Under the pieces are notes generated by a model. That model made no database searches. It worked only from the letters and a program-made list of their open reading frames with translations, and was not told the origin of the DNA. 64,000 nucleotides of DNA, from contig CALSUF010000002.1 in NCBI GenBank assembly GCA_943789465.1, forward strand, positions 631,952 through 695,951. Direction: 5' to 3'. The DNA is from an uncultured Flavobacteriaceae bacterium (GTDB lineage: Bacteria > Bacteroidota > Bacteroidia > Flavobacteriales > Flavobacteriaceae). A program made the translations under genes and the position numbers. Below are positions 1-40,356 of the stretch, piece after piece (within the stretch, counting starts at the first letter, position 1; every line of letters starts with the position of its first letter).

Positions 1-2534
1 TTTGCACCTCCTAAGTACATCGCTCCTCCATCACTAGATGTTGCGGTATTATTTACAAAAGTACTGTTGTTCAAAACGAAATCTACACCATTGCCTGTTA
101 CAGCAATTGCACCACCTCTAGTTCCAGAGTTTCCGTTAAAAAGAGATCCAGAGATGGTTACAATTGCAGAATTTCCAGCGACAATAGCCCCTCCTTTATC
201 TGATGATATATTGTTTTCAAAAACACAATCTGTTATGGTTAAATTTCCGTTGGAGACTAATATAACTCCACCACCTGCATTGTTAGTGACAGAGTTTCCA
301 GTAAAGGTACAGTTCTCAAAGGTAGCTGAAGCTCCTGCGTTGTTATTGAAAAAGACACCACCTCCAGCAAGTGTGGTAGTATTGTTTAGAAATGTAAGAT
401 TCTTAAAGGTTACATCTGCAGACGATGCTCCATTAATTGTAAAGAGTCTTCCAGTACTATCGTTTCCAGATAAAGTTGAGCTAGCATCAAGACCTTCTAT
501 CATAAATGAAAAATTCTTAGAATTTAGAGATACTCCTTCTGGTGAAATGGTTCCTACAATAATAAGTTTATCTCCATTAGAAGTGATCTGGTTCATCGCA
601 TTCCCAAAGTTGCCATATGCATTTGATTCACTTGTGCCATCCATATTACCTGCACCTGTTGCAGAAACATAAACGATGTTTTGTGTTTCAATCTGATAAT
701 CCTCTGATTGAACTGTATTAGACGCTGGTGAGATCCCTATTGTATTTGCTGCTTTTAATCTGTAAAAATAGTTTTCTTGTTGCAAATCAGTATCGGTATA
801 CGTTTCTGTATTTTCAGCAAGTGTAGCAATCGTCTGAAAGTTAACACCATCTGATGAGCGTTCTAGAATATAGTTATCTTCTTCTATAGATACATCATGC
901 CAAGTAAGTTCTAAATACTTTTCTGTAGCTGTATATACAAAATCATTTGGAAACAACTTTCCTGGAGTATCTGGCAACACGCCATGTGTCGTTCTATCTT
1001 CAAATTGAGCAGCATATAAAGATTGTATGGATAAATTTTCACCTGTTCCTTCAATATAGCCTACTGGATGACTAAAAGGACCGTCTCCATTAACAGTCGC
1101 GTTACAACCAATAGCATAATTTTGACCAATAGGTGGTTTTTGAATTGCGATTTGATTTGAGGGGGCATTGATATTCCAAGCCACGCCGTTGGTTACAGTC
1201 CAACCATGACCTGTTCCATAACTCCCTCTATTGTGCAAGCCTAAAATACCAGTCGCATTGGTATTGGTCCAAGTAATATTATCCCAAAGTATCCCTTGTC
1301 CCCAACGTCTATGCGACTCCGATCGGGTGTAATCTCCAGAAGAGGAGCAATTGGTAAACACAATTCCATTCACATCACTGGCTCCATTCGCAACAAATGT
1401 ATGCCTGCCGTTAGATGCTACACAGTTTTCAAAAAGAATATTATTACAATGGTCAGTTACTTCGAAATTGTATCTCCAACCTCCAGAAATAGGACCATGC
1501 ATGTCTAGGACATTGGTATCAATTACAGAACAACGTGTGGCTTCATCAAATTTAACGCCTTGGTCACTCACTCTTAAAATAGTGACGCCTTTTACCCAAG
1601 AATTATCGACACCAATCATATTAATACCTACTTTGACATGATCTCTACCTGTAACTCCAGAAGATTCTACAAATACCCTAAGGTTTTCTATACCACATTC
1701 TTTTAATTGACTGTTACCATTGTAAGTATATACGTAGGATTGAGATAAAGACCGGTCTAATATGTCATAAATAGGCGTTGCCACCTGAATTTTGTTACCT
1801 TCAATGCTTGTAATATGTCTATTGAAAACTAAATTTATTGTATTGGGTTCCCACGGAGCGTCCGTGGCTACACCTCCATTATCTACTGCTGCTATCCATG
1901 CTGCTGTGCTGGGGTGTTTAATGATGATATTATCACCAACATTATAAACGGATGCATCTGCAACTTCAATCGTTCTGCTTCCAGTTGGTATGTATGGGCT
2001 TATTATATCTTGCCGAGTTCCTGCAACTTGGCCTCCGAAACCACTTTTGTTATTCGTGCCAATTCTAATTAATGTTCTTTCGTCTGGAATGTTCCCTGCT
2101 CCTATAATAATTGTATTTGATGTGGCATCTTCACCATCGCCAGAACCGCGAAGTACAACGCCACTACTGTTTATAATGAGTTCACCACTAACAGAATATT
2201 CTCCTGGCAATAATAGCAAGGTGCCTCTATGACCATTTGCGTTTAGTGGTAATGCTTCCACATCGTCAATTGCAGCTTGGATATGTGCTGTATTATCTCC
2301 AGCTATAGGACTTATTTCTAGTACAACCGCTACATCTGGCAATGCTTCTTCGCCATTTTTATACCCTACATAACTGTAATCAGGGATATGGTTTCCATCA
2401 GTATCAGAGACATACACCAATTGATCCGAGGTATTGTGGAAAAGGATAGATGATTCGTATTGTGCCTGTATGGAATTTGATACGAAAATTAGAAAACAAA
2501 CTGTAGTCATCTTCAAATAAGCACTTTTTTTCAT
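1..2534 (-). CDS. Secreted right-handed beta-helix protein: pectate-lyase-fold N-terminal domain, FN3-like module and PbH1-type beta-helix repeats. The C-terminus lies beyond the window start (partial).
   Basis: Continuous minus-strand frame from the window edge up to an ATG (complement of cat at about 2532-2534). It is absent from the ORF track because there is no stop in the window. The N-terminus reads MKKSAYLKMTTVCFLIFVSNSIQAQ (Sec signal, AQ cleavage motif). Beta-helix motifs GRDHVKVG and NCVASNGRHTFVANGASD are present. The distal half carries repeats (NNTATSSDGGAMYLGG, GGGVILVSNGNLTITDC) that are paralogous to the beta-helix module of the next gene. The listed 67..672 and 1296..1641 plus-strand ORFs are antisense shadows. 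Confidence 0.55.
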   Translation of the reverse strand, partial: MKKSAYLKMTTVCFLIFVSNSIQAQYESSILFHNTSDQLVYVSDTDGNHIPDYSYVGYKNGEEALPDVAVVLEISPIAGDNTAHIQAAIDDVEALPLNANGHRGTLLLLPGEYSVSGELIINSSGVVLRGSGDGEDATSNTIIIGAGNIPDERTLIRIGTNNKSGFGGQVAGTRQDIISPYIPTGSRTIEVADASVYNVGDNIIIKHPSTAAWIAAVDNGGVATDAPWEPNTINLVFNRHITSIEGNKIQVATPIYDILDRSLSQSYVYTYNGNSQLKECGIENLRVFVESSGVTGRDHVKVGINMIGVDNSWVKGVTILRVSDQGVKFDEATRCSVIDTNVLDMHGPISGGWRYNFEVTDHCNNILFENCVASNGRHTFVANGASDVNGIVFTNCSSSGDYTRSESHRRWGQGILWDNITWTNTNATGILGLHNRGSYGTGHGWTVTNGVAWNINAPSNQIAIQKPPIGQNYAIGCNATVNGDGPFSHPVGYIEGTGENLSIQSLYAAQFEDRTTHGVLPDTPGKLFPNDFVYTATEKYLELTWHDVSIEEDNYILERSSDGVNFQTIATLAENTETYTDTDLQQENYFYRLKAANTIGISPASNTVQSEDYQIETQNIVYVSATGAGNMDGTSESNAYGNFGNAMNQITSNGDKLIIVGTISPEGVSLNSKNFSFMIEGLDASSTLSGNDSTGRLFTINGASSADVTFKNLTFLNNTTTLAGGGVFFNNNAGASATFENCTFTGNSVTNNAGGGVILVSNGNLTITDCVFENNISSDKGGAIVAGNSAIVTISGSLFNGNSGTRGGAIAVTGNGVDFVLNNSTFVNNTATSSDGGAMYLGGA

Positions 2535-2886
2535 AATTTATATTTTAATAATTCTTTACAATGAGGTTTACAATAAAATACAAATTAAAAGATATTCATT
2601 AATTTAAAATTAATATTTACTTAATATGAAACGTTATTGAGATAAATCGACTCTAAAACACAATACAGCAGCAACGTACTTAAATGATTTTTTTGAAAGA
2701 TTAAGCGTTGGAATACGCTTCTCATTGAAGCAAAAAATAATTACATTAGATGTCGTGAGATTTAAAGAGGACGTGAATGTTTATTGAATAAACAGACTCT
2801 TGTTCTATAGCGTTAGGCGAATCGCTGTTCTCTGGCTTTACATCAACAGTTCCATTTAAATTCGCTGATATTACCGTTATAACTGC

Positions 2887-2915
2887 AACAGCCTATAAAG
2901 TTAGTATAGGCTGTT
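2887..2915 (-). terminator. Hairpin downstream of the 2990..7528 gene (11-bp perfect stem aacagcctata / tataggctgtt, 7-nt loop), without a clear U-tract
   Basis: Perfect inverted repeat about 75 bp past the stop codon of the minus-strand gene. No T-run follows, hence low confidence. Confidence 0.25.
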
Positions 2916-2989
2916 ACGGATATAAAAATAGACTTCATCTTCTGTAAAAGTGACGATTAAAAAAACTAAAATAAGAGTGTTTTTCTCAT

Positions 2990-5900
2990 TTAGTATTTAA
3001 CAAACCTCTTCGTCGACGATTTAACACCATCTGAAACCTCAATTAGATAAATCCCTACAGACAAAGAGCTTACGTCAATGGCATGTGTGTTATTGGCTTT
3101 TAAAATAATTTGCCCCAATCTATTGTATACTTTTAAATAATAATTATTTAAACCTTTAATATATAACTTATCAGACGTAGGGTTTGGATACATAATAAAC
3201 TTCAGGGTTTCATTGTCTCCATCAATAGAAGATAAACTAGAGTCTTCCACAATAACTGTTCTTGTTACTTCTGTAGCAGCATTGCCTGAAGCATCACTTA
3301 CATTATAAGTAACAGTATAAGAACCAACAGTCTGAGTATCTACTGTACTAACATCAGTCACGATACTCGCGGTTAATGTTGTATCATCATCATAGTTATC
3401 GGTAGCTGTAGCACCACCATCAACGTATGCAGTTCCAACCTCCACTGTTACTGAGGGTTCGCCCTCTAAAGTAATGACTGGAATTGTAGTATCTACGACA
3501 TTGACCGTACGTGTTACTTCTGTAGCAGCATTGCCTGAAGCATCACTTACGTTATAAGAAACAGTATAAGAACCAACAGTCTGAGTATCTACTGTACTAA
3601 CATCAGTCACGATACTCGCGGTTAATGTTGTATCATCATCATAGTTATCAGTAGCTGTAGCACCACCATCTACGTAGGTCGTTCCAACTTCAATAGTTAC
3701 GATGGCTGTTCCTGTTAAAGTAATGACTGGAATTGTTGTGTCTACGACATTGACCGTACGTGTTACTTCTGTAGCAGCATTGCCTGAAGCATCACTTACG
3801 TTATAAGAAACAGTATAAGAACCAACAGTCTGAGTATCTACTGTACTAACATCAGTCACGATACTCGCGGTTAATGTTGTATCATCATCATAGTTATCAG
3901 TAGCTGTAGCACCACCATCTACGTATGCAGTTCCAACTTCAATAGTTACGATGGCTGTTCCTGTTAAAGTAATGACTGGAATTGTTGTGTCTACGACATT
4001 AACTGTTCTTGTTACTTCTGTAGCAGCATTGCCTGAAGCATCACTTACGTTATAAGAAACAGTATAAGAACCAACAGTCTGAGTATCTACTGTACTAACA
4101 TCAGTCACGATACTCGCGGTTAATGTTGTATCATCATCATAGTTATCAGTAGCTGTAGCACCACCATCTACGTATGCAGTTCCAACTTCAATAGTTACGA
4201 TGGCTGTTCCTGTTAAAGTGATGACTGGAATTGTTGTGTCTACGACATTAACTGTTCTTGTTACTTCTGTAGCAGCATTGCCTGAAGCATCACTTACGTT
4301 ATAAGAAACAGTATAAGAACCAACAGTCTGAGTATCTACTGTACTAACATCAGTCACGATACTCGCGGTTAATGTTGTATCATCATCATAGTTATCAGTA
4401 GCTGTAGCACCACCATCTACGTATGCAGTTCCAACTTCAATAGTTACGATGGCTGTTCCTGTTAAAGTGATGACTGGAATTGTTGTGTCTACGACATTAA
4501 CTGTTCTTGTCACTTCTGTAGCAGCATTGCCTGAAGCATCACTTACATTATAAGTAACAGTATAAGAACCAACAGTCTGAGTATCTAATGTACTAACATC
4601 AGTCACGATACTCGCGGTTAATGTTGTATCATCATCATAGTTATCAGTAGCTGTAGCACCACCATCTACGTATGCAGTTCCAACTTCAATAGTTACGATG
4701 GCTGTTCCTGTTAAAGTGATGACTGGAATTGTTGTGTCTACGACATTAACTGTTCTTGTCACTTCAACGGCTGCATTGCCTGAAGCATCCGAAACATTGT
4801 AAGTCACGTTGTAGCTTGCAACGATAGTAGTATCTACTGTACTAACATCAGTCACGATACTCGCGGTTAATGCGGTGTCATCATCATAGTTATCGGTAGC
4901 TGTAGCACCGCCATCTACGTATGCAGTTCCAACTTCAATAGTTACGATGGCTGTTCCTGTTAAAGTAATGACTGGAATTGTTGTGTCTACGACATTGACC
5001 GTACGTGTTACTTCTGTAGCAGCATTGCCTGAAGCATCCGAAACATTGTAAGTCACGGTGTAGCTTGCAACGATAGTAGTATCTACAGTATTTACAGTAA
5101 TTATATTGCTAGTAATATCCCCATCAATATTATCACTCGCAGTTGCTCCTGCATCTGTATATGAAGTTCCAACCTCAACTGTTACTGAAGGTTCGCCTTC
5201 TAGAGTAATGACCGGGATTATTGTGTCTGAAAAATTAAGCCCAGAATTCCAAGAACCTGCATCCTCGCCATCCGAACCAAAATCAATTGGACTTTCTGTT
5301 CCTACAGCAACGGCATCATATATTACGTTCCCTGTTGTTGAATCAAAACTTAGATTGGAAGCTGTTAAATCCGCAGCGACTATTGAAGTTGCAAAAGAAT
5401 CGTCTGCAGCAAGGTTTGGTGTAATTTTTTTAGTTAACGAATTAATTAAATTTAATTCAACATTAGCAATAACTCCTAAATCGGAGGGTACATCAGTTGT
5501 ACCATTGGTTACAAAATTTCCATAAATTAAAGAGTTTTGGATTGTAAAAGGTCTTGTCCCTTCTATTTTAACACCCCCTCCTTTGGATGGGTCCTGTGTG
5601 TTATTAACTTGATTATTAAAGATGGTAGTATTTGTAATACTACTTAGGTTGTTATTACCGGCTAAGTATAGTGCTCCGCCATCAATACCCGTTGCTGTAT
5701 TATTTACAAAAGTAGATCCTGTAACAATTAATTGTCTTCCAACAGATGTTACAGCGACTGCACCACCTCTATTGGCGCTATTTCCATCAAATAATGAATT
5801 GGTAATTGTTATAACTCCAGTACCCCCTGCTAAAATAGTACCACCATTAACAGTCGAAGTATTATTTTTTAAAATACAACCCGTTAATGTTAAATCTGAG

Positions 5901-7528
5901 TTTTGAGTAATCGTAATAACAGCACCTGGGTTTGTAGTAGTCGCATCTTGAAATGTAATATTTGTGAATGAAATTGTTTTGCCTGCGGTATTTATAACAT
6001 ACATTCTAGCACTCGCACCTGTAATCGTTGCATCAGATTGCCCAACAAAAGAAATCGATTTTCCTATTCCAACTTGACCTGTTTGGTTGATAGCTCCTAC
6101 GATAGTAATGATATCCCCATCTGAAGCAGCTACAACAGCATTGTTTACAGTTGTAAAAGCATTCTCTTCAGTCAAACCGCCATTGTTGTTTCCTCCAACT
6201 TTAACAAAATAAGTGTTTTGAGCAAAAGTGTCTACGACATTAACTGTTCTTGTCACTTCAACGGCTGCATTGCTAGAAGAATCCGAAACATTGTAAGTCA
6301 CGGTGTAGCTTGCAACAACATCTGTATCTACAGTATTTACTGTAATTATATTGTTAGTAATATCGCCATCAATATTATCACTCGCAGTTGCTCCTGCATC
6401 TGTATAAGATGTTCCAACCTCCACTGTTACTGAGGGTTCGCCTTCTAGAGTAATGACTGGGATTATTGTGTCTGAAAAATTAAGCCCAGAATTCCAAGAA
6501 CCTGCATCCTCGCCATCCGAACCAAAATCAATTGGACTTTCTGTTCCTACAGCAACGGCATCATATATTACGTTCCCTGTTGTTGAATCAAAACTTAGAT
6601 TGGAAGCTGTTAAATCCGCAGCGACTATTGAAGTTGCAAAAGAATCGTCTGCAGCAAGGTTTGGTGTAATTTTTTTAGTTAACGAATTAATTAAATTTAA
6701 TTCAACATTAGCAATAACTCCTAAATCGGAGGGTACATCAGTTGTACCATTGGTTACAAAATTTCCATAAATTAAAGAGTTTTGGATTGTAAAAGGTCTT
6801 GTCCCTTCTATTTTAACACCCCCTCCTTTGGATGGGTCCTGTGTGTTATTAACTTGATTATTAAAGATGGTAGTATTTGTAATACTACTTAGGTTGTTAT
6901 TACCGGCTAAGTATAGTGCTCCACCATCAATACCCGTTGCCGTATTATTTACAAAAGTAGATCCTGTAACAATTAATTGTCTTCCAACAGATGTTACAGC
7001 GACTGCACCACCTCTATTGGCGCTATTTCCATCAAATAATGAATTGGTAATTGTTATAACTCCAGTACCCCCTGCTAAAATAGTACCACCATTAACAGTC
7101 GAAGTATTATTTTTTAAAATACAACCCGTTAATGTTAAATCTGAGTTTTGAGTAATCGTAATAACAGCACCTGGGTTTGTAGTAGTCGCATCTTGAAATG
7201 TAATATTTGTGAATGAAATTGTTTTGCCTGCGGTATTTATAACATACATTCTAGCACTCGCACCTGTAATCGTTGCATTAGATTGCCCAACAAAAGAAAT
7301 CGATTTTCCTATTCCAACTTGACCTGTTTGATTGATAGCTCCTACGATAGTAATGATATCCCCATCTGAAGCAGCTACAACAGCATTGTTTACAGTTGTA
7401 AAAGCATTCTCTTCAGTCAAACCGCCATTGTTGTTTCCTCCAACTTTAACGAAATAAATGTTTTGAGCTAATAAATTTAAACTAAAGAAAATAGTTAGCA
7501 ATAGTGTGGTTAGTGTAGTTTTATTCAT
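2990..7528 (-). CDS. Giant T9SS-secreted surface/adhesin-like protein (1512 aa): duplicated beta-helix (PbH1-like) module, 9 DUF5011/Ig-like domains and a Por (T9SS type A) C-terminal sorting domain
   Basis: ORF track. Signal peptide MNKTTLTTLLLTIFFSLNLLAQ. Repeated motifs GGALYLAGNNN and GGGVKIEG are typical of parallel beta-helix repeats. The 83-aa unit PVITLTGTAIVTIEVGTAYVDGGATATDNYDDD...SYTVSYNVSDASGNAATEVTRTVNVVD matches the DUF5011 pattern (P.I.L.G...v..G..Y.D.GA.A.D..D.D......YTVTY.V.D.AGN.A....R.V.V). The C-terminal about 80 aa (KLYIKGLNNYYLKVYNRLGQ...GIYLIEVSDGVKSSTKRFVKY) is a Por secretion tail. Confidence 0.85.
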   Translation of the reverse strand: MNKTTLTTLLLTIFFSLNLLAQNIYFVKVGGNNNGGLTEENAFTTVNNAVVAASDGDIITIVGAINQTGQVGIGKSISFVGQSNATITGASARMYVINTAGKTISFTNITFQDATTTNPGAVITITQNSDLTLTGCILKNNTSTVNGGTILAGGTGVITITNSLFDGNSANRGGAVAVTSVGRQLIVTGSTFVNNTATGIDGGALYLAGNNNLSSITNTTIFNNQVNNTQDPSKGGGVKIEGTRPFTIQNSLIYGNFVTNGTTDVPSDLGVIANVELNLINSLTKKITPNLAADDSFATSIVAADLTASNLSFDSTTGNVIYDAVAVGTESPIDFGSDGEDAGSWNSGLNFSDTIIPVITLEGEPSVTVEVGTSYTDAGATASDNIDGDITNNIITVNTVDTDVVASYTVTYNVSDSSSNAAVEVTRTVNVVDTFAQNTYFVKVGGNNNGGLTEENAFTTVNNAVVAASDGDIITIVGAINQTGQVGIGKSISFVGQSDATITGASARMYVINTAGKTISFTNITFQDATTTNPGAVITITQNSDLTLTGCILKNNTSTVNGGTILAGGTGVITITNSLFDGNSANRGGAVAVTSVGRQLIVTGSTFVNNTATGIDGGALYLAGNNNLSSITNTTIFNNQVNNTQDPSKGGGVKIEGTRPFTIQNSLIYGNFVTNGTTDVPSDLGVIANVELNLINSLTKKITPNLAADDSFATSIVAADLTASNLSFDSTTGNVIYDAVAVGTESPIDFGSDGEDAGSWNSGLNFSDTIIPVITLEGEPSVTVEVGTSYTDAGATASDNIDGDITSNIITVNTVDTTIVASYTVTYNVSDASGNAATEVTRTVNVVDTTIPVITLTGTAIVTIEVGTAYVDGGATATDNYDDDTALTASIVTDVSTVDTTIVASYNVTYNVSDASGNAAVEVTRTVNVVDTTIPVITLTGTAIVTIEVGTAYVDGGATATDNYDDDTTLTASIVTDVSTLDTQTVGSYTVTYNVSDASGNAATEVTRTVNVVDTTIPVITLTGTAIVTIEVGTAYVDGGATATDNYDDDTTLTASIVTDVSTVDTQTVGSYTVSYNVSDASGNAATEVTRTVNVVDTTIPVITLTGTAIVTIEVGTAYVDGGATATDNYDDDTTLTASIVTDVSTVDTQTVGSYTVSYNVSDASGNAATEVTRTVNVVDTTIPVITLTGTAIVTIEVGTAYVDGGATATDNYDDDTTLTASIVTDVSTVDTQTVGSYTVSYNVSDASGNAATEVTRTVNVVDTTIPVITLTGTAIVTIEVGTTYVDGGATATDNYDDDTTLTASIVTDVSTVDTQTVGSYTVSYNVSDASGNAATEVTRTVNVVDTTIPVITLEGEPSVTVEVGTAYVDGGATATDNYDDDTTLTASIVTDVSTVDTQTVGSYTVTYNVSDASGNAATEVTRTVIVEDSSLSSIDGDNETLKFIMYPNPTSDKLYIKGLNNYYLKVYNRLGQIILKANNTHAIDVSSLSVGIYLIEVSDGVKSSTKRFVKY
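3242..4984. repeat. Tandem array of 7 near-identical 249-bp units, each encoding one 83-aa DUF5011-like domain, inside the 2990..7528 gene
   Basis: 249-bp periodicity is visible directly in the DNA (for example ...catcacttacgttataagaaacagtataagaaccaacagtctgagtatctactgtactaacatcagtcacgatactcgcggttaatgttgtatcatcatcatagttatcagtagctgtagcaccaccatctacgta... recurs). The encoded repeats differ by only 0-3 residues. Confidence 0.8.
4979..7468. repeat. Direct duplication of 2 x 1245 bp (415-aa beta-helix + DUF5011 block) inside the 2990..7528 gene
   Basis: Protein residues about 21-435 and 436-850 are near-identical. The antisense shadow ORFs 5106..5525 / 6453..6770 and 5622..5906 / 6867..7151 are identical at an offset of exactly 1245 bp. 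Confidence 0.8.
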
Positions 7529-8298: not shown

Positions 8299-8910
8299 AT
8301 GAAAATAAGTCATGTAATATACAAGGTTGATAATTTAAAAAATGGATTCAAACACTTTGAAAGCCAGGGATTTGAAATTGAATACGGTTCAAAAAGAAAT
8401 GCACATAATGCCTTGATTTATTTTTCAGAAGGACCCTATATTGAAGTATTAGAAAATGTAAATATTCCACCCTATGCAAAACTATTTTTAAAGCTAATCG
8501 GCAAGCATAAAGTTATTGATAGATTGGAACTATGGAATAAGGAGAAGGAGGGTTTTATTGAATTATGTTTGGAGAATTATGATACCGACTTTAAAAAAGA
8601 AGAGGAAGTTTTAAAAAAGTATAAGCAAGGTTACTTTGTTACGAAGAGCAAAAGATTAGATCCATCAAATAGATTACTAAAATGGAAACTCCTTTTTCCA
8701 GAAGAACGGAGAATCCCATTTCTTATGACTTATTTTAATATTGACCCCAAACCAAAAAAAAATAATCATCCAAATGGCATAAAAAAAATTAAGAGCATTT
8801 CATATGGTACAAATGCAGGGTTCATTCCAATAGTTAACGAATTATGCGATGATAATATTCTTAATTTATTCATTGGTGATGGGGTTTCAAATTTAGAGTA
8901 TGAAAAATAA
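8299..8910 (+). CDS. VOC (glyoxalase/bleomycin-resistance/dioxygenase-like) family protein, tentative
   Basis: ORF track. N-terminus MKISHVIYKVDNLKNGFKHFESQGFEIEYG resembles the VOC beta-alpha-beta-beta-beta N-terminal motif (HV..V.Dl.....FY...LGFE). The assignment is weak. Confidence 0.45.
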   Translation: MKISHVIYKVDNLKNGFKHFESQGFEIEYGSKRNAHNALIYFSEGPYIEVLENVNIPPYAKLFLKLIGKHKVIDRLELWNKEKEGFIELCLENYDTDFKKEEEVLKKYKQGYFVTKSKRLDPSNRLLKWKLLFPEERRIPFLMTYFNIDPKPKKNNHPNGIKKIKSISYGTNAGFIPIVNELCDDNILNLFIGDGVSNLEYEK

Positions 8911-8993
8911 AAACTGATGAGAACAAAACCTATACGCAATACCCTTCGGGATACTGCGCATAGCCAGACCGTTGGATTCAAAATAATTCGAAA

Positions 8994-9036
8994 TCTTTCC
9001 AAAAATAGTTCGACTTCACTCCCCTTAGCTCCACGA
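8994..9036 (+). repeat. Dispersed intergenic box, copy B (TCTTTCCAAAAATAGTTCGACTTCACTCCCCTTAGCTCCACG)
   Basis: Matches the box consensus. It is followed about 35 nt later by a terminator hairpin with the conserved CCAAGCTTGCTTG loop. Confidence 0.6.
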
Positions 9037-9070
9037 TTAAGCGCAGTGCGACTGCGACTTAAAATTCAAA

Positions 9071-9105
9071 AAACTTACCAAGCTTGCTTGTGTAAGTTTT
9101 TTTTT
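9071..9105 (+). terminator. Intrinsic (bidirectional-type) terminator: A-run, stem cttac/gtaag, loop caagcttgcttgt, then T9
   Basis: aaaacttaccaagcttgcttgtgtaagttttttttt lies downstream of the 8299..8910 CDS. The same loop with a different, compensating stem occurs at 41261 and 62621. Confidence 0.6.
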
Positions 9106-9304
9106 AAGAGGGCTGATGTAAAAAAAAGTTGTCAGGACATTTACAAGAAGTGATTAACATGACAAAAAAAAAAGAAAAGAGATGATTTATTGAATTTATA
9201 ATTTTTATCATAACAATAAAAAAATTCAATATTACCCTTATAATTGTAATTGATAAAAAAACAAGCTTAAGCTAAATTATAAATAGTATTGTAATTAAAT
9301 ACCA

Positions 9305-10411
9305 ATGAAAAAACTATTTTCACTTGTAGCATTAATCATCGGATTTACAGTTAGTGCTCAAATAACTACCAGTAGCACAAATAATAGTGGACCCTCTGCA
9401 TCTGCGATTGGGCTGCAAACGACAGCAAGTGGAGTTGCTTCTACATCAATCGGGCGTCAGACATTAGCAAGTGGAGACTACTCCACTGCATTGGGTTATT
9501 TAACATCAGCATCTGGGGGTAGTTCTATCTCCATGGGACGTTCTACATCTGCAAGTGAATTATATGCAACCGCAATGGGACATGAGACAACAGCAGGTGG
9601 AAATTCTTCTACAGCAACAGGATATAAAACAACGGCAAGTGGAGCTGCCTCTACAGCAATGGGGCTAGAGACAACAGCAGGCGGCGATAATTCGATTGCT
9701 ATGGGTTATCTCACATCAGCATCTGGAGGTAGTTCTATAGCAATGGGACGTTCTACATCTGCGAGTGAGTTGTACGCAACCGCAATGGGACATGAGACAA
9801 CAGCAAGTGGAAATTCTTCAACAGCAACAGGATATCAAACAACAGCAAGTGGATCTGCCTCTACAGTAATGGGAAAAGGTACTATAGCTAGTGATTATGG
9901 TTCTCTTGTGATTGGTACATACAATTTAAGCGGTTCAACGGTTACTGTTGACGCAACACTACCCAATATTGGAAATACTGCTTTTGTGATCGGAAATGGC
10001 ACTAATGCTGTAAAATCTGATGCCTTTAAAGTAATGTACAATGGAAACGCTACTGTTGGTAATGACTTAACAGTAAGTGGTGATGTTGTGGTTTCATCAG
10101 ATGCAAGACTTAAAGCAAATATTGTATCTCTAGGTTCTACTCTATCAAGACTATTACTTATTGATGGGAAGCGTTACACAATGAAAAAAGACGGCAAACA
10201 AAAAATTGGCGTATTGGCTCAAGACATACAAAAAGTATTTCCAAAACTTGTTACAACTGATGACAAAGACATGTTAGCGGTAAACTATCAAGGACTTGTT
10301 CCTGTGCTAATTAATGCGCTTAAAGAACAACAATCAGAAATAGACACTTATAGAGAAGAAGTATCTGAATTAAAGAAAATGGTTAATCAACTTATTACCA
10401 AACAAAAATAA
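9305..10411 (+). CDS. Secreted tail-fiber-like protein: Ser/Thr/Gly-rich repeat region plus a C-terminal peptidase S74 (endosialidase/tail-spike intramolecular chaperone) domain
   Basis: Signal peptide MKKLFSLVALIIGFTVSAQ. About 14-residue repeats (T.ASG..STA.G). The C-terminus DARLKANIVSLGSTLSRLLLIDGKRYTMKK...GVLAQDIQKVFPKLVTTDDKDMLAVNYQGLVPVLINALKEQ matches the S74 chaperone-domain pattern (SD.RLK.NI..L...L..l..l.pv.Y.....G..AQ....fPelV........vdY..L.p.li.AiKEq), followed by a coiled-coil tail. Confidence 0.8.
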   Translation: MKKLFSLVALIIGFTVSAQITTSSTNNSGPSASAIGLQTTASGVASTSIGRQTLASGDYSTALGYLTSASGGSSISMGRSTSASELYATAMGHETTAGGNSSTATGYKTTASGAASTAMGLETTAGGDNSIAMGYLTSASGGSSIAMGRSTSASELYATAMGHETTASGNSSTATGYQTTASGSASTVMGKGTIASDYGSLVIGTYNLSGSTVTVDATLPNIGNTAFVIGNGTNAVKSDAFKVMYNGNATVGNDLTVSGDVVVSSDARLKANIVSLGSTLSRLLLIDGKRYTMKKDGKQKIGVLAQDIQKVFPKLVTTDDKDMLAVNYQGLVPVLINALKEQQSEIDTYREEVSELKKMVNQLITKQK

Positions 10412-10424
10412 CATCACAATAAAT

Positions 10425-11303
10425 ATGAAAAAATCACTTACACTTTTAGCATTAACTATGGCATGTAGTATGAATGCACAAATACAAATTTATCAAACAA
10501 ATATTAGCGGATCAACAACTTCTTCAGCAATTGGAAGTTATACAAAAGCAACTGCTACTGGTGCATTTGCATCAGGGAAAGACACAGAAGCAACTGGAGA
10601 GTATTCTCAAGCATTGGGATATAAAGCAAAAGCACATGGAAATAAGTCTTTTGCAATAGGAGATCTCACCACAGCAAACGGAGTTAACTCTACAGCTATG
10701 GGATATTGGACAGAAGCAAATGGAGATTATTCTACATCAACGGGAGAATTTTCAGATGCAAATGGAAAAACTTCTACAGCAATGGGATATGGTTCATATG
10801 CAAGTGATGCTTTTTCTTTGGTAATTGGTCATAACAATTTAAGTGGATCAACGGTAACCGGTAGTGCAACTGAATTTAATTCAGCAAATACTGCTTTTGT
10901 AATTGGAAATGGTAGTTGGCCTTGGGATAGATCAGATGCTTTTAAAGTAATGTCTAACGGAGATACTACAGTTAGTAATGACCTAACTGTAAATGGTGAT
11001 ATCGTTGTTTCTTCAGATGCACGACTTAAAGCAAATATTGTATCGCTAGGCTCTACGCTTGCCAAACTACTGCTAATTGATGGAAAGACCTACACAATGA
11101 AAAAAAACGGTAAACAAAAAATAGGCGTATTGGCTCAAGATATTCAAAAAGTATTTCCAGAACTAGTTACAACAGACGATAAAGACATGTTGGCGGTAAA
11201 TTATCAAGGGCTTGTACCCGTGCTTATTAATGCACTTAAAGAACAAGACGATAAGATTTCAAGATTAGAAAAATTAGTAGAAAAATTAATTTCTAATAAA
11301 TAA
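10425..11303 (+). CDS. Secreted tail-fiber-like protein with C-terminal peptidase S74 chaperone domain (paralog of 9305..10411)
   Basis: Signal peptide MKKSLTLLALTMACSMNAQ. The C-terminal 100 aa are nearly identical to the upstream paralog (DARLKANIVSLGSTLAKLLLIDGKTYTMKKNGKQKIGVLAQDIQKVFPELVTTDDKDMLAVNYQGLVPVLINALKEQ). There is a 13-nt gap to the upstream gene. Confidence 0.8.
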   Translation: MKKSLTLLALTMACSMNAQIQIYQTNISGSTTSSAIGSYTKATATGAFASGKDTEATGEYSQALGYKAKAHGNKSFAIGDLTTANGVNSTAMGYWTEANGDYSTSTGEFSDANGKTSTAMGYGSYASDAFSLVIGHNNLSGSTVTGSATEFNSANTAFVIGNGSWPWDRSDAFKVMSNGDTTVSNDLTVNGDIVVSSDARLKANIVSLGSTLAKLLLIDGKTYTMKKNGKQKIGVLAQDIQKVFPELVTTDDKDMLAVNYQGLVPVLINALKEQDDKISRLEKLVEKLISNK

Positions 11304-11309
11304 AAAACT

Positions 11310-12875
11310 ATGAGAAAGTTAATACTATTAACAACTCTTGTATCTTTCACATTACAAGCACAAAATATTACAGTTGCATCAGGCAAAAGTTTTACAATTG
11401 ATAAAACAGGTTCTGTGACCATGAGTGGAAATTTCTCAAACTCTGGAACCTTTTCATTAAACTCAGATTCTGACGAGTTTTCATCCATTATAATTGGCGG
11501 TTCTGTTACTGGAAATATTACCTATAATCGGTATGTAAATTCAGTAGGTACAGATAAGTGGGATTTAATAGGGTCTCCAGTAAGCGGGCAATCTATTAAC
11601 TCATTTGTTACTGTAAACTCCTCAACTTTAGCCACTAATGGTTCTACTTATGCGATAGGGTTTTATAACAATTCAAACAATACTTGGACAAACTTAACTA
11701 GTGCTGATTTAGGGGGAGAAATTATCTTTCCTGTGGGTACGGGCTTTCAAATGGGGACCATTGCTAATGGAACTGGGATACTTTCTTTTACAGGAAGTCC
11801 AGCTGCTACAAATCAAACACAGGAAATTATTAATAATGATGCTGCAAATTCAGGATTAGGAACAAGATGGAATTTAGTAGCAAACCCTTTCCCTTCTTAC
11901 ATCCAAGGAAATGCCAATGCGCATGTTACTAATAACTTTTTAACAATAAATAGTGATAAGCTTGACGATGCTTATGAAGCCATTTATGGCTATGATGCAG
12001 ATGGAACAGGATATACAATTTATAATAATAGTAGTGGTGCATTACTTCTTGCTCCTGGGCAAGGATTTATGATCGCATCGGATAATACTAACTCTGAAAC
12101 TATTAATAATATTTCGTTTACAACAGACATGAGAACTATTGTGGGGGGAGATGATTTCATTACAAGTAGTAGAGCCATGCAAGACTCTTATGAACTAATT
12201 CTTAAACTTTATGAAGGTGATACAGAAATAGATCAAACAAAATTCTATTTTGAAGATGGGCTTAATCTAGGTTTAGACCCGGGCTATGACGCTGGTCATT
12301 TTAACCAACAAGCATCTTTAATGTCACGGTTAGTAGAAGAAGATCAAGGAATCGGGTTTGCTATCAATTCAATGGGACTTGAGAGTATTAATGATGTCAT
12401 AATACCTCTTGAAATTAATAGAGAATCTGGAAACGGATTCAGAATAAGCATACACATCAATGGTATTTATGAAGGTACAAACATATATTTAGAAGATAGT
12501 CAAGAGGGAACCATGACTCTTTTAAATGAAGAAGACTTTGAGTTAATTCCAGAAATAAATTTAAGCGAAGTAGGTAGATTTTTTATTCATTTAACTCAAA
12601 CTACTTTTTCTATTGAAAATGAAACGCAAACCAATCATTTAAATGTATATAAGTTAGATGCAAATAACTTTATTACTGTAGAAGGATTAGCTTATCTATC
12701 AAATCAGACCAACCTTCGATTATATAATATTCTTGGTGAAGAATTATTATCTATCTCTTTAGCAAATAACACAAACACACAAACAATTTCTACACAGGAG
12801 TTGACCACAGGTATTTATATTATTAAATTAAAATCAGGGAGTAATGTAATTACTAAAAAACTTATCATAAAGTAA
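11310..12875 (+). CDS. T9SS-secreted protein of unknown function (Por C-terminal sorting domain)
   Basis: Signal peptide MRKLILLTTLVSFTLQAQ. The C-terminus LRLYNILGEELLSISLANNTNTQTISTQELTTGIYIIKLKSGSNVITKKLIIK is a T9SS type A tail. 6-nt gap to the upstream gene. Confidence 0.75.
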   Translation: MRKLILLTTLVSFTLQAQNITVASGKSFTIDKTGSVTMSGNFSNSGTFSLNSDSDEFSSIIIGGSVTGNITYNRYVNSVGTDKWDLIGSPVSGQSINSFVTVNSSTLATNGSTYAIGFYNNSNNTWTNLTSADLGGEIIFPVGTGFQMGTIANGTGILSFTGSPAATNQTQEIINNDAANSGLGTRWNLVANPFPSYIQGNANAHVTNNFLTINSDKLDDAYEAIYGYDADGTGYTIYNNSSGALLLAPGQGFMIASDNTNSETINNISFTTDMRTIVGGDDFITSSRAMQDSYELILKLYEGDTEIDQTKFYFEDGLNLGLDPGYDAGHFNQQASLMSRLVEEDQGIGFAINSMGLESINDVIIPLEINRESGNGFRISIHINGIYEGTNIYLEDSQEGTMTLLNEEDFELIPEINLSEVGRFFIHLTQTTFSIENETQTNHLNVYKLDANNFITVEGLAYLSNQTNLRLYNILGEELLSISLANNTNTQTISTQELTTGIYIIKLKSGSNVITKKLIIK

Positions 12876-12883
12876 TATTGAAT

Positions 12884-15512: not shown

Positions 15513-15842
15513 ATGAAATTGGATAACGATAAAATTGAAGAAATCATTGAATTGATAGAGTTAGTCATTAGTGAAGACACACATTTACAGAATGCACTTA
15601 ACGATTCTCATAGTACTAATTTTTATACAAAAGAGGAACTTCAAAAAACAATAGATGAAATTTCATCAAAAGAAATGAAAAAAATATTTGAACAAAAATT
15701 AAAAAACTTTGACTCTAACAGAAAAAAATATCTAATGGAAAAATATGGGAAATTTATTTTGAGCGAAAGACTTGTTAGGTCAACAATAAATTCCTCTTTT
15801 GGACTGAAAAGAAAGTATGGAGTATTTGGAAAATATTATTAA
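15513..15842 (+). CDS. Hypothetical protein (109 aa, charged/helical)
   Basis: ORF track only; no recognisable motif. Confidence 0.35.
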   Translation: MKLDNDKIEEIIELIELVISEDTHLQNALNDSHSTNFYTKEELQKTIDEISSKEMKKIFEQKLKNFDSNRKKYLMEKYGKFILSERLVRSTINSSFGLKRKYGVFGKYY

Positions 15843-15937
15843 CGATTCGTACATAACAACGACCTCTTCCTTTATCCCTCCCCCCAAATCAACCAATATA
15901 CTTAATCTATGATGTGTTATGCTTTAAGTATAGACAC

Positions 15938-17545
15938 ATGAAAAAAATTATAATTTTTTGTTTATTATTTTTTTGTAAATATTCATTTGGAGACTCAAAT
16001 TTTGTAATCCAAAAAATACATACAGATAACATATATTATAATGTTGTAATATATGAGAATGAGGCATACGTCAGTTCAAATCATGGGATATTTCTCATTG
16101 ATTCGTCAAGCGGTAAATTAGTAATGCATGATAAATCTGTAGAGGGTATAATAAATCCTGACTTGTCAAAAAATCTTGGTTTTAAAATTGAATTTATTGA
16201 TTCCCCCATCCCTCTTCCTGATTCATACATGTCAACTGTAACTGATTTTGCATACCACCGCAACTCTCTATATGTTGTAACGAAAGGAGACTTACTTGAA
16301 TACGAAAACAAACCCTATAAATTTTCTCCACACGGAAGTGTTCGTTCTATCTCTAAAAATAGTATTGGAACGTATAGCGGAGTGTATATTAATGGAAATA
16401 AACTTAAAAAAACAAACTATACCGATGGACAAATAAGAGAATTCGATAGTATTACATTTGTTTGCTACAATGGCCTCACAGTAGTCAAGGACGCTACAGA
16501 AAAAATTCTATATGATAACAGTAATTCAAAATTTAGTAGTGCTGAATATGGGAAAATTTCAGATATATTTTCAATAGGAAATTCTAATTATTTAGCTATA
16601 TCATCAATTGGTATTTACATATACGATTACAATTTAAACAGTTTTAATTTAATTTATTCTAATAAAAAAAGAATTATTCCAATAAGAAATAAGATTAACA
16701 ATCGTATTCAAAGTGGCAATGAATTCCATTTTATTGATGATGACAAATATTTTTCTGTTGACATAAATACTTTAAAAACAAGAGTTATTTATGACAACTT
16801 TGATTTTAAAATAGATGACATTTTAGAGTGCAGTATTGATGGGAATATTTTCTATGGAATTGCTGGAAATAAATCATTATTTAAATTTAAAAGATTTAAA
16901 AATGAGCTTAAGTTAATAAGCACTTATGAGATGAGTTTATCAGCACATACAATTTCGGATGTTGGAGATCTCGTTTTTTTAACTGGAAACGATGGTTTAA
17001 GTGTCTTTGTGAAATCTATTGGTAAAATGTATAATGGAATTATAATTGACGAGTTCAATAAATACGCTGTATTCAAATTTAAAAATTACATCAGTTTTGG
17101 AAGTATTCACGGAGTTTATAGCATTGAGAATGTTAATGAATATCAAAAGAGCTCATTTCTTCAAAATTTAAGTTCAAACAGCGACAGTCGCTTCAAATAT
17201 GAAGTTCTAATCATATTATTTATTTTAATTTCATTTTTAATAATTTTCAAGTCATTGAAGAACAAAAATTTGTCTAATGAAGAGCTAGTAATAGAAATTA
17301 AAAAATTTATTGTTAAAAACTTAACAACAGTCACTTTGATTACTTTACAAGACAAATTTAATTTAGATTACAATGCTATAAATAATTTACAGAAAGAATT
17401 TAGTCCTGCCAAATTCATAAAACAAGAAAGAAATAGCAAAGCAAAAGAACTGTTTTTAAAAGAGGAATCCATATCAAAAATCTCCAATAACACGGGGTAT
17501 TCTGAATCATACCTTTTGAAGAACAAATATAATTTCTTAAAATAA
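15938..17545 (+). CDS. Membrane-anchored one-component regulator: signal peptide, extracytoplasmic domain, single TM and C-terminal HTH (AraC-like half)
   Basis: Probable start at MKKIIIFCLLFF (the track ORF starts 24 nt earlier). TM segment YEVLIILFILISFLIIFKSL. C-terminal HTH ...ISKISNNTGYSESYLLKNKY. Confidence 0.55.
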   Translation: MKKIIIFCLLFFCKYSFGDSNFVIQKIHTDNIYYNVVIYENEAYVSSNHGIFLIDSSSGKLVMHDKSVEGIINPDLSKNLGFKIEFIDSPIPLPDSYMSTVTDFAYHRNSLYVVTKGDLLEYENKPYKFSPHGSVRSISKNSIGTYSGVYINGNKLKKTNYTDGQIREFDSITFVCYNGLTVVKDATEKILYDNSNSKFSSAEYGKISDIFSIGNSNYLAISSIGIYIYDYNLNSFNLIYSNKKRIIPIRNKINNRIQSGNEFHFIDDDKYFSVDINTLKTRVIYDNFDFKIDDILECSIDGNIFYGIAGNKSLFKFKRFKNELKLISTYEMSLSAHTISDVGDLVFLTGNDGLSVFVKSIGKMYNGIIIDEFNKYAVFKFKNYISFGSIHGVYSIENVNEYQKSSFLQNLSSNSDSRFKYEVLIILFILISFLIIFKSLKNKNLSNEELVIEIKKFIVKNLTTVTLITLQDKFNLDYNAINNLQKEFSPAKFIKQERNSKAKELFLKEESISKISNNTGYSESYLLKNKYNFLK

Positions 17546-18520: not shown

Positions 18521-19830
18521 ATTTAAGACTAATTATTTATTCACTTCTTCTAATTACGCATAGTGTTTCGGGGCAATCTAGATTACAAAAGGTCCTCGCT
18601 CATGACACCTCCAGTATTTATGTTTTTAATAAAGAAAATATAACTATTAAGAACTTTCGAAACTCAATTTTAGATACAATACACCTTAATCCTTCTGAGA
18701 ATATCGATTTTGAGGATTTAAAAATGGTTGTTTTAAAGGGTGTGCCTCATTTAGTTTCTAAAGAAGGCGGAATGGTATGGGAAGTAGTTAAAGATTCGCT
18801 CAAAAGAATAGATAATTCTTTCAACCATAAAAACACTTCTCAGTCAGATATTTTCGTTCGTAATGACACCATCTTTAAATTTGGTGGGTATGGATATTGG
18901 GGTGTAAGAAACTTTTTTACCTACTTTTCCAAGACCACTGCAGAATGGCAGTTTTATGGAATTAACCCTCAATCTTATTTACCTAAAGGTTTAAGTCATT
19001 TTAATGCCTCCTATCACAAGAACAGCTATTATATTTCAGGTGGTGTAACAATAGACGAGCATGATGGAACCAACGAACTTTTAAATACCAACGTTTGGAA
19101 ATTCGATTTTAATACAAAATTATGGAGTGATTTAGGAACATCAAAATTTGAGTCTTACGATGTTCATAATGTTGTTGATATTGGAAATGGGCGTCAGCTC
19201 GTTTTTAGGCGCTTAAACAAAACCGATTCTTATGTTATTCGTATTATAGATTATGTTGAAAATTCCATAGAGGAGTATGACAACTCCAATCCAATCATGT
19301 CTATTGATGGAGGATTTTTCGCGCGTGATTCACTATACACTATCAAAAGTGGAAAGTTAAGTGCTGTGAATTTAAAAGATTTCACAAATGAGTCCACAGA
19401 TCAAACCTCTTTGTATTTAGATGCTAGTGTGTTATTTGAACGCCTCACACTGTTTATTGTCAGTGTTCTAATTTTGTTGTTTGGAGGCTTAGTGTTGTTA
19501 TATTGTAAAAACAGGAAACGCCCAAGACTCACTGATTCAGGTTTTTATCATAACTACATACATTATCCTCTCTCAAATCAAGAGCAAAAAGTTTTAGGCA
19601 TGTTATTGTACAGTAAAAACATTAATTCTAAATTATTATTAGAAGAGTTGAACGATTCATCATCGAGTACTTCGTATAACAATCTAAAAAAACTAGAAGT
19701 TATTGATTCTTTGAATGAAAAAATATCAAAAGTTTTTGGAACCAAAACATTTATACGATCAAAAATGAGTACAAAAGATGAGAATATACTTATCTATTTT
19801 ACCAACTATAGAAAAGAGTTTGTGCTATGA
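18517..19830 (+). CDS. Membrane-anchored regulator: Kelch-like beta-propeller extracytoplasmic domain, single TM and C-terminal LuxR-type HTH
   Basis: Signal peptide. Kelch-like motifs ([34 protein letters not shown]). TM segment [22 protein letters not shown]-terminus [27 protein letters not shown] resembles a LuxR/GerE HTH. Confidence 0.55.
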
Positions 19831-20288
19831 TCTGTTACGATGATTATTGGTGGGTGTTAAAAGTGAAAACAGGACATGAACTAAAGGCTGTTTCTGATTT
19901 GGAAAGCTTTGGGGTCCAGTCTTACACTCCTATAATCGAGGTGGTTCGTAATTGGAGCGATCGTAAGAGGAAAATTCAAACACCACTTATGCCTCGTTAT
20001 GTATTTGTAAAATTGACCCCCAATGAAGAACGCATCGTATTTGGCTGCAAAAGTGTGCTGGGGTATATGCATATTCATGGATTGAGAGCAAAGGTTTGGC
20101 CTAAAGAAATTAAAAAGTTACAGCAGTATTGCAACAACATTCATTACGCTTCGCAAACTGATCGTGGAACACATATTAAAGCTCCCGTATTGGGCGTTGA
20201 TGCAGAAGTTATTAATGTCAAAAACGGAGTTTGTTATTTAGTTTCGGATTGTGGTCGTTATAAGATACAATTCAAACTGGCAAGCTAG
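19827..20288 (+). CDS. upxY: UpxY-family transcription antiterminator (NusG paralog) heading a polysaccharide locus
   Basis: NGN-domain motif YWWVLKVKTGHELKAVSDLESFGVQSYTPIIEVV...RKIQTPLMPRYVFVKL (compare NusG WY.l.t.sg.E.kv...L). It sits immediately upstream of flippase, glycosyltransferase, Wza and Wzc genes. Confidence 0.7.
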   Translation: MICYDDYWWVLKVKTGHELKAVSDLESFGVQSYTPIIEVVRNWSDRKRKIQTPLMPRYVFVKLTPNEERIVFGCKSVLGYMHIHGLRAKVWPKEIKKLQQYCNNIHYASQTDRGTHIKAPVLGVDAEVINVKNGVCYLVSDCGRYKIQFKLAS

Positions 20289-20309
20289 TAAATGAGCTTG
20301 TTATTTATT
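20281..20309 (+). terminator. Hairpin caagct-agtaaatg-agcttg over the upxY stop codon, followed by ttatttatt (candidate attenuator/terminator in the leader of the polysaccharide operon)
   Basis: Perfect 6-bp stem and a T-rich tail. It is followed by an unusually GC-rich stretch gagtgtcatgggacaccctgcggcggagccgtg (20321..20353) containing the hairpin gtgtc-atgg-gacac. Confidence 0.3.
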
Positions 20310-20387
20310 AAAACCCTTTAGAGTGTCATGGGACACCCTGCGGCGGAGCCGTGAAAATTTTAAATCAAATATGAGAACTATTCCAAA

Positions 20388-21497: not shown

Positions 21498-21558
21498 ATT
21501 ACTTTTAATATTTTTAACTGGGCTGCCTATCTTTGGCTCAAAATTACCCCTCTTTGTA

Positions 21559-25186: not shown

Positions 25187-25357
25187 ACACAACTAATCAT
25201 TCAATTTAAACTCAGCAAAGAAAGTCAGTGGAAAATCAAAAATAACATCTGTCACTTGTCTTTTATTATTTTAAAAGTTGTTGTTTTTAAAGCGAATCAC
25301 AACTTAAACCTCACCTAATTAACCACAAGACTTAACTAAGTAAATAAACTTTTTACA

Positions 25358-26116: not shown

Positions 26117-26122
26117 TTTAAT

Positions 26123-38775: not shown

Positions 38776-38813
38776 TGTGGTATGTTTTATTAAATTATGA
38801 TTATATATTTTTT

Positions 38814-40355: not shown

Positions 40356-40356
40356 C

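Follow-up and report, generated by a model that had tools for sequence, protein, structure and literature searches.

The window analysed here, 64 kb of low-GC (~32%) chromosomal DNA from an uncultured Flavobacteriaceae bacterium (contig CALSUF010000002.1), raises the question of what two genes with phage-like ends do in a bacterial chromosome. The genes, here called fibre A and fibre B, encode proteins closed by a Peptidase_S74 domain, an intramolecular chaperone, and fibres capped in this way have long been regarded as a phage hallmark. Directly downstream lie a gene for a cargo protein of the type IX secretion system (T9SS), hereafter the partner, and a gene for a small exported peptide. The nearest relatives of the window are uncultured marine Flavobacteriaceae, with matches named Polaribacter sp., Flavobacteriaceae bacterium and Cryomorphaceae. 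On balance, it is probable that the two genes encode Sec-exported trimeric beta-roll spikes that cleave themselves after folding and, at the cell envelope, work together with the T9SS partner.

The architecture of both proteins was resolved by profile searches. Their C-terminal ends matched Peptidase_S74 (PF13884) in Pfam over the full 58-position model, with scores of 47.7 and 51.8 bits for fibres A and B (E-values of 2e-12 and 9.8e-14) against a cut-off of 22. Both being above the gathering score, the two paralogues with C-terminal S74 domains postulated by an earlier note on this DNA are real. The S74 domain follows an array of YadA_head repeats (PF05658; E-values of 3.6e-22 for A and 1.8e-17 for B), whose matches start at residues 23–42 of fibre A and at residue 28 of fibre B; such repeats are trimeric in all solved relatives. 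The earlier note had spoken here of a stalk rich in Ser, Thr and Gly, of which the repetition stands; its nature is that of the 14-residue YadA-head repeat, with a period of 42 nucleotides in the DNA. Searches of the PDB gave the same division, the N-terminal parts matching the heads of trimeric autotransporters (best match BpaC, 7o23; E 3.9e-16) and the C-terminal parts the chaperone end of phage S16 gp37 (6f45; E 2.3e-9 with the single sequence and 3.8e-13 with a chaperone-only profile). The last 25–30 residues of fibre A, beyond the S74 domain, look like a coiled coil. Orthologues of fibre A in other contigs are 320–452 amino acids long, lengths that fit gain and loss of repeats. Fibre B is 62% identical to fibre A overall and ~90% identical across the C-terminal third.

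The residues needed for self-cleavage were found in place. Both fibres contain the motif SDARLK with the catalytic dyad (S265/K270 in A, S197/K202 in B), and the S, D, R and K of this motif were invariant in two alignments (A1 and A5) that included relatives down to ~50% identity, which removes the concern, voiced in the earlier note, that the catalytic Ser and Lys might be missing. The surrounding VSSDARLK aligned with VSSDRRIK of phage S16 gp37 (6f45) and with the motif of 8jov, and the dyad also aligned with that of MYRF (7dc3), at a marginal E-value of 0.083. Since Bd3182 of Bdellovibrio cleaves at S782, its crystal structure ending at A781 (PMC10769870), cleavage of fibre A is predicted between S264 and S265.

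Each fibre begins with a basic and then hydrophobic segment ending in an A/Q junction, as expected of the bacterial signal peptides that had been proposed for them. The predicted junctions are MKKLFSLVALIIGFTVSA/Q for fibre A and MKKSLTLLALTMACSMNA/Q for fibre B, signal peptides being called by inspection together with a simple hydrophobicity script. A signal-peptide-like N-terminus was present in 74 of 86 distinct relatives from other genomes, 73 of them with an [AGS]-Q junction; cleavage by signal peptidase I before Gln, the Q-rule, is typical of Bacteroidota (PMC5837995, PMC10653852). Fibre B has a Cys at position 14 of its signal peptide, and a lipoprotein was considered and rejected since this Cys is not conserved among orthologues. 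One relative of fibre B, P0342 (L093:279-1127; L numbers designate the loci compared), lacks a signal peptide at its called N-terminus (MCKCGCGTCETK...), which overlaps the upstream gene by 8 nucleotides. With its near-identical chaperone it was examined as a possible phage copy, and this was rejected because its contig likewise bears the genes for the T9SS protein, the peptide and NTP_transf_5; the probable explanation is recombination, a variant of the locus or, the contig being of low coverage, a start called at the wrong place.

The fibre genes form part of a compact and conserved cassette (Table 1), consisting of one to three S74 fibres, a T9SS protein of ~520 amino acids with a type A C-terminal sorting domain (CTD), and an exported peptide of 50–80 amino acids (49 in L095). 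From fibre A through the HPr-kinase-like gene the intergenic gaps in the window are 13, 6, 8, 34 and 13 nucleotides. The earlier note had given the first three as 13, 6 and 2; the first two hold, and the third becomes 8 because the TTG start at 12878 is replaced by a conserved ATG at 12884. In other contigs the flanks vary and the order fibre(s), homologue of the 521-residue protein, small open reading frame (ORF) is retained. The view of the fibres as co-operonic with a T9SS cargo protein thus gains from an adjacency conserved across genomes down to ~30% partner identity.

Table 1. Features of the fibre cassette and its surroundings (window positions)
Feature	Position	Strand	Description
Non-coding leader 5' of fibre A	8911-9304	+	394 nucleotides without long ORF; presumed promoter region of the cassette
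Fibre A, 368 amino acids	9305-10411	+	Predicted signal peptide, residues 1-18 (A18/Q19); ~11-12 YadA-head 14-residue repeats; conserved neck/tip; S74 intramolecular chaperone
Tandem repeat array in fibre A	9417-9873	+	210-nucleotide unit = 5 x 14 amino acids; 2.2 copies; 85% matches (Tandem Repeats Finder)
Fibre A chaperone, residues 265-368	10097-10408	+	Ser265 codon 10097-10099; Lys270 codon 10112-10114
Fibre B, 292 amino acids	10425-11303	+	Predicted signal peptide (A18/Q19); ~6-7 YadA-head repeats; neck/tip; S74 chaperone
Fibre B chaperone, residues 197-292	11013-11300	+	Ser197 codon 11013-11015; Lys202 codon 11028-11030
T9SS cargo partner, 521 amino acids	11310-12875	+	Signal peptide (A17/Q18); ~290-residue N-terminal domain; beta-sandwich domains; type A CTD
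Small exported peptide, 67 amino acids	12884-13087	+	Long basic N-region; hydrophobic core; AQA/QS junction; variable stretch; PPxPxGW(G/D) end
NTP_transf_5 nucleotidyltransferase-like protein, 335 amino acids	13122-14129	+	PF14907, E 3.2e-26; optional companion of T9SS partner and peptide
HPr-kinase-related P-loop protein, 375 amino acids	14143-15270	+	TIGR04352 HprK_rel_A, E 4.7e-17 (below cut-off); PF07475, E 2.8e-4; optional companion

Conservation of the cassette was quantified in two samples. The first was centred on the partner and comprised 80 metagenome loci drawn by means of the 521-residue protein, counts being taken over loci with enough flanking room. An S74 gene ended at most 150 nucleotides upstream of the partner homologue in 40 of 55 loci, a small ORF lay directly 3' of it in 57 of 64, and HPr-kinase-like or NTP_transf_5 genes were present in 18 of 52; the gap between fibre and partner was 6–16 nucleotides in most close relatives. 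In the second sample, centred on the fibres, 25 of 91 S74 termini had a member of the partner family at most 100 nucleotides downstream, at 27–98% identity. Divergent loci illustrate the arrangement: L095 carries HPr-kinase-like and NTP_transf_5 genes on the divergent strand, then an S74 fibre, the partner, a 49-residue peptide and PorV, and L096 carries a fibre, the partner, a 50-residue peptide and a 905-residue S74 protein. In two divergent single amplified genomes the cassette is followed immediately by a gene for PorV, the T9SS cargo shuttle (L095:6839-7975 and L099:7551-8687). Unrelated proteins with T9SS-CTD-like ends follow the fibres in L020, L037, L061 and L064.

The partner combines an N-terminal signal peptide with a sorting domain recognised by TIGR04183/PF18962, as T9SS cargo does; its type A CTD covers residues ~445–521 (12642-12872). 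Profile and Pfam searches found no match for its passenger. The small peptide matched no Pfam, NCBIfam or PHROG family, and its recurrence in divergent loci (L095:6560-6709, L096:6540-6692, L098:7914-8063 and 9830-9979, and L099) defined a leader consensus, [ST]RKxA[IL]KK[MLF]GKYA[AG]L[ST]A[IL]GT..ILNP.K[AS]QA/QS, the basic N-region of which resembles a twin-arginine-like motif with RK. The AQA/QS junction is followed by a variable G/S/D-rich stretch and the conserved C-terminal PPxPxGW(G/D). The mature peptide would be expected as pyroGlu-SVGLDSSGDNPPDPDGWGD; the shortest form ends in SGNPPTPGW and would give a product of ~10 residues.

Upstream, the 3' 321 nucleotides of the leader are 96% identical to the region 5' of fibre A in L001, where the next gene upstream differs. 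A sigma-70 scan, which is uninformative for Bacteroidota, identified no promoter in the leader. A hairpin with a 15-bp stem at 8930-8963, just 3' of a glyoxalase-like gene (8299-8910), is probably a terminator dividing that gene from the fibre operon.

Sequence variation was found to be distributed very unevenly along the fibres. The window was compared with L001, whose flanking genes are 97–99% identical. Despite this closeness, the mature part of fibre B (10482-11012 versus L001:2951-3481) showed ~21% protein divergence, with 38 nonsynonymous and 14 synonymous differences in 177 codons; its chaperone showed 2 and 6, respectively, in 96 codons, and the partner 8 and 7 in 521 codons. Such divergence is a sign of recombination, or of diversifying selection, restricted to the exposed portion. 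Fibre A differs from its L001 orthologue solely by an indel of 84 amino acids, i.e. six 14-residue repeats. An exposed adhesin or spike would be expected to show this pattern, in which a constant folding module is coupled to a mature part that changes quickly and varies in length. Between A and B, the chaperone regions are ~90% identical as protein and 84% as nucleotide sequence, with 31 synonymous and 11 nonsynonymous differences in 105 codons. These figures indicate purifying selection, and recent gene conversion, considered as the cause of the near-identical C-termini, was rejected on the same grounds.

The family is large. Relatives of fibre B number 2587 in 90%-identity clusters, many of them sequences of exactly 291–292 amino acids from marine metagenomes, and a 50%-identity library held 928 representatives at E ≤ 1e-30, many being proteins of 190 to >5000 amino acids built of YadA-head repeats plus S74. 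GTDB genomes hold several copies of the fibre family each.

Combined, these features suggest the following sequence of events. Sec would export each fibre, and signal peptidase I, judging from the junction, would leave an N-terminal Gln. In the periplasm the C-terminal S74 chaperone would align three chains, as its family suggests, and thereby nucleate a short left-handed beta-roll of ~6–7 turns in B and 11–12 turns in A, plus the conserved neck and tip. After folding, the Lys five positions further on would activate Ser265 (A) or Ser197 (B) to release a chaperone of 104 or 96 amino acids, respectively, leaving mature spikes of ~246 (A) or ~178 (B) residues per chain. The spikes, the co-transcribed T9SS cargo and the PPxPxGW peptide would act as one cell-envelope module, a joint function suggested by conserved gene order, PorV adjacency and hypervariability. 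Such a module would most probably be a strain-variable surface adhesin or spike complex, in which the T9SS protein supplies the outer-membrane passage or anchorage that the fibres lack. From the sequences and their families we infer trimerisation, self-cleavage, location, partnership with the T9SS protein and the adhesive role alike.

Several observations weigh against this picture, and passage across the outer membrane is its weak point. No T9SS CTD model of Pfam or NCBIfam matched either fibre, the C-termini being S74 and coiled coil, and domain searches revealed no conserved lipobox Cys or YadA_anchor, hence no recognisable signal for outer-membrane export or anchoring. Since the fibres have no CTD, lipobox or barrel, the partner may carry or anchor them, they may be periplasmic, or they may take another route; a periplasmic location is the default expectation. 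We infer display on the cell surface with corresponding reserve, because an outer-membrane export signal is missing from the fibres; the hypervariable mature part and the presence of a T9SS neighbour speak for it indirectly. To our knowledge, neither hitch-hiking with T9SS cargo nor export of CTD-less proteins by a partner is an established or described mechanism, and the partner passenger has no recognisable fold hinting at fibre binding. The association is also incomplete in both directions: in the fibre-centred sample 66 of 91 S74 termini were not followed by the partner family, so that fibres can occur without it, and partner and peptide occur without fibres in L098, L099 and many partner-centred loci at ~50% identity. 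The compared loci are, in addition, phylogenetically non-independent, and counts in both samples overstate the number of independent observations.

The alternative that fares best retains Sec export and self-processing and confines the fibres to the periplasm or to the inner face of the outer membrane, the T9SS adjacency reflecting co-regulation or a periplasmic role towards the cargo or the peptide. We regard it as possible and on the unlikely side. It draws on the missing CTD, conserved lipobox and beta-barrel anchor, on the two thirds of related fibres that lack a T9SS partner, and on the frequency of T9SS-CTD genes in the region, at least five of which lie in the window. Set against this are the hypervariability of the mature part and the change of repeat number between near-identical strains, which are typical of exposed proteins, the fact that every YadA-head or S74 protein yet characterised is an extracellular adhesin or spike, and the retention of the order fibre, T9SS protein, peptide down to ~30% partner identity.

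A second alternative has the fibres reaching the surface or the medium independently of their T9SS neighbour, for instance by vesicles, lysis or another exporter, as free-standing adhesins, with the T9SS protein and the peptide forming a separate unit that is often adjacent. It would account for the occurrence of T9SS protein and peptide without fibres and of fibres without them, and for tailoring enzymes that track the T9SS protein and peptide only. It sits poorly with the close spacing, an S74 gene lying within 150 nucleotides upstream of most partner homologues (40 of 55) with gaps of 6–16 nucleotides in most close relatives, and with other fibres that precede unrelated T9SS-CTD proteins (L020, L037, L061 and L064); we consider it rather improbable.

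A third would see in the genes what is left of a prophage, tailocin or contractile injection system, with the fibres belonging to a phage-like particle encoded elsewhere. What speaks for it is resemblance and nomenclature: the chaperone and the adjoining region match many phage tail-fibre families (PHROGs, E-values down to 3e-28; PDB 6f45 and 8jov), and NCBI calls relatives 'tail fiber domain-containing protein'. Against it, searches of the 64 kb with Pfam and PHROGs and for tRNAs found no capsid, terminase, portal, tail, lysis or integrase gene and no tRNA, and the two fibres were the only window genes with a PHROG match, their neighbours giving none; what the window does contain is T9SS adhesins, three collagen-repeat proteins, TonB/FecR genes, housekeeping enzymes and a polysaccharide locus with a NusG/UpxY-like gene at its head. 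Phage genes were likewise absent from ~180 related contigs of up to 640 kb. The earlier note was right that phage structural, lysis and integrase genes are missing nearby, and the complete prophage or tailocin cluster that it had thought a wider view might uncover was seen neither in the window nor in any related contig. The fibres have no close viral relative: two scans of IMG/VR yielded nine loci at ≤44% identity, with the match limited to the chaperone, and the matches in INPHARED comprised 647 records, of which none reached 60% identity or spanned 80% of the protein. Signal peptides with a Q junction in 73 of 86 relatives are hard to square with cytoplasmic particle assembly, and several copies per genome occur in varied chromosomal settings. 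A prophage or tailocin was rejected for want of support in the window, IMG/VR and INPHARED scans, leaving a phage remnant very improbable: fibres A and B are chromosomal bacterial genes. The earlier note's description of them as host-domesticated would further presuppose that they passed from phage to host. PADLOC gave no match to anti-phage defence and Rfam no match in the window. Type Vc secretion, with the fibres as trimeric autotransporter adhesins, is brought to mind by YadA_head repeats that match the BpaC, YadA, EibD and UspA1 heads, has a negligible probability and was ruled out by the missing anchor domain, since Pfam found no YadA_anchor beta-barrel, the C-terminus is S74 plus a short coiled coil, and NCBIfam autotransporter models scored 20–33 bits against cut-offs of 600–3000.

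If the fibres are indeed spikes working with the T9SS partner, a bolder and frankly tentative extension, unlikely as a whole, can be proposed for marine Flavobacteriia: CTD-less, Sec-exported trimeric fibres would be carried through the T9SS, or docked at the surface, by a CTD-bearing partner, with the PPxPxGW peptide as third component. In some lineages the peptide may be phosphorylated or glycosylated by the HPr-kinase-like/NTP_transf_5 pair, and the system may perhaps include the collagen-like fibres encoded at 36844-40355. Were it true, T9SS export by hitch-hiking or through an adaptor would be seen for the first time, in a system that would serve as a T9SS-based functional counterpart of trimeric autotransporters.

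The distribution of the downstream enzymes bears on what they act upon. NTP_transf_5 and HPr-kinase-like genes were found only in loci with a partner homologue (15 loci) and in none of ~50 S74 loci without one. The pair adjoins partner and peptide without any fibre in L098 and L099, and is missing from the full cassettes L004, L006, L010, L014, L027 and L039. Its position elsewhere varies (L095:1681-3743, minus strand; L098:10079-11155; L099:3692-4780, minus strand), giving three arrangements with that of the window. The earlier suggestion that these enzymes modify the fibre finds no support, because they track partner and peptide, never S74 fibres alone, and are absent from many fibre cassettes; they would more probably tailor the small peptide or the T9SS partner. 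The set recalls the lasso peptide clusters of paeninodin and pseudomycoidin, in which an HPr-kinase-like P-loop protein stands beside a nucleotidyltransferase-fold protein and a small peptide gene, the kinase homologue phosphorylating a Ser and the nucleotidyltransferase adding a hexose to the phosphate (PMC8498205). Unlike those clusters, the cassette has no lasso cyclase or protease genes, and its peptide starts with a leader resembling a signal peptide and has GW(G/D) in place of Ser at its end; the link to the lasso enzymes is one of family level only. To the eye, the kinase-like protein opens with a stretch of ~85 residues similar to a PqqD-type peptide-recognition domain; Pfam detected none. 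Two further ORFs of 109 and 543 amino acids (15513-17545, plus strand) accompany the enzyme pair in L001, L003, L009, L012, L016 and L045; the shorter has a weak sigma-70 region-4-like match, and neither matched a family.

Other genes of the window also concern the cell surface. At least five T9SS-CTD genes make it unusually rich in T9SS cargo, among them those for a 1512-residue Ig-like/HYR adhesin (2990-7528, minus strand), a 1682-residue DUF285/leucine-rich-repeat protein (41435-46483, minus strand) and a 585-residue lipase-like hydrolase (55670-57427, plus strand). Three collagen-repeat proteins, in the region 36844-41055 and at 47607-49664 (both minus strand), have a signal peptide (..SYA/QVGINT), no CTD and a conserved N-terminal domain of ~80 residues in common; their genes cause local GC peaks (0.42–0.43). 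Two of these CTD-less proteins (36844-40355) follow a 232-residue T9SS-CTD protein (40357-41055). In L020 a full-length homologue of the latter (26% identity, E 7e-27) comes after an S74 fibre, a suggestive parallel to the pairing of S74 fibre and partner. At 19827-29835 (plus strand) a NusG/UpxY-like gene heads a polysaccharide locus of very low GC (0.26–0.28) with a GT1 glycosyltransferase, an epimerase, Wza-like and Wzc-like export genes, a GT4 glycosyltransferase and ORFs without assignment. The cassette is followed by the same NusG-like gene in both L001 and L003, which gives the entire stretch the look of a surface-structure island.

Literature searches found no paper on flavobacterial or Bacteroidetes S74 or YadA-head fibres; neither the cassette of fibre, T9SS cargo and peptide nor how abundant it is in marine flavobacteria has been described so far. 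The label 'tail fiber domain-containing protein' invites false prophage calls for a family that is very abundant in ocean metagenomes. The conserved gene order offers a testable handle on how Bacteroidota could place trimeric fibres without an export signal at the surface, and on the substrates of the widespread HPr-kinase-like/NTP_transf_5 pairs. That the mature fibre is hypervariable between strains suggests that it plays a part in the particle, algal or phage interactions of bloom-associated flavobacteria.

Comparison with known systems helps to place the fibres. With the phage chaperones of K1F endosialidase, T5 pb1 and S16 gp37 (6f45) they share a PF13884 match above threshold and the Ser-Lys dyad, and with 6f45 also the helical or coiled-coil tail after the S74 domain. 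Phage S74 fibres, by contrast, have no signal peptide, assemble in the cytoplasm, are encoded in tail-gene modules and reach at most 45% identity to the present fibres, in the chaperone only. The 14-residue left-handed beta-roll repeat is shared with the heads of YadA, BpaC, EibD and UspA1; unlike these trimeric autotransporters, the fibres have no membrane-anchor beta-barrel, stalk or neck domains, and trimerisation would presumably be driven by S74 and not by an anchor. As regards the T9SS surface adhesins of Flavobacteriia, such as SprB and RemA, the partner passenger is unrelated to known adhesins and the fibres lack a CTD.

The closest counterparts are the mosaic adhesive trimer (MAT) fibres of Bdellovibrio bacteriovorus, e.g. 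Bd3182, which are chromosomally encoded, trimeric and surface-exposed, carry a signal peptide and an SDxxxK motif (Caulton et al. 2024, PMC10769870), and lose self-cleavage upon mutation S782A (PMC10769870). They established that bacteria use S74-capped fibres as surface adhesins of their own (PMC10769870), and bacterial S74 fibres as such are no longer new; what the present locus adds is a conserved cassette that can be tested. Common to both groups are non-phage chromosomal genes, a signal peptide, a C-terminal S74 domain with SDxxxK and multiple paralogues per genome. Judged from the published description of MATs, the beta-rich domain of ~130 residues that follows their signal peptide would find no room in the present fibres, where YadA-head repeats begin ~10–20 residues after the signal-peptide cleavage site; at 292–368 amino acids, these fibres are three times shorter than MATs. 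They further differ in phylum (Bacteroidota), in repeat type and in having a T9SS cargo protein and small peptide as conserved companions, a partnership not described for MATs. Given the absent ~130-residue N-terminal domain, the shorter length, the YadA-head repeats and the T9SS partner, the present fibres would therefore work like MATs and yet fall outside the MAT family, and the locus carries the idea of a bacterial S74 fibre to another phylum and another build, a short YadA-head beta-roll without the MAT anchoring domain.

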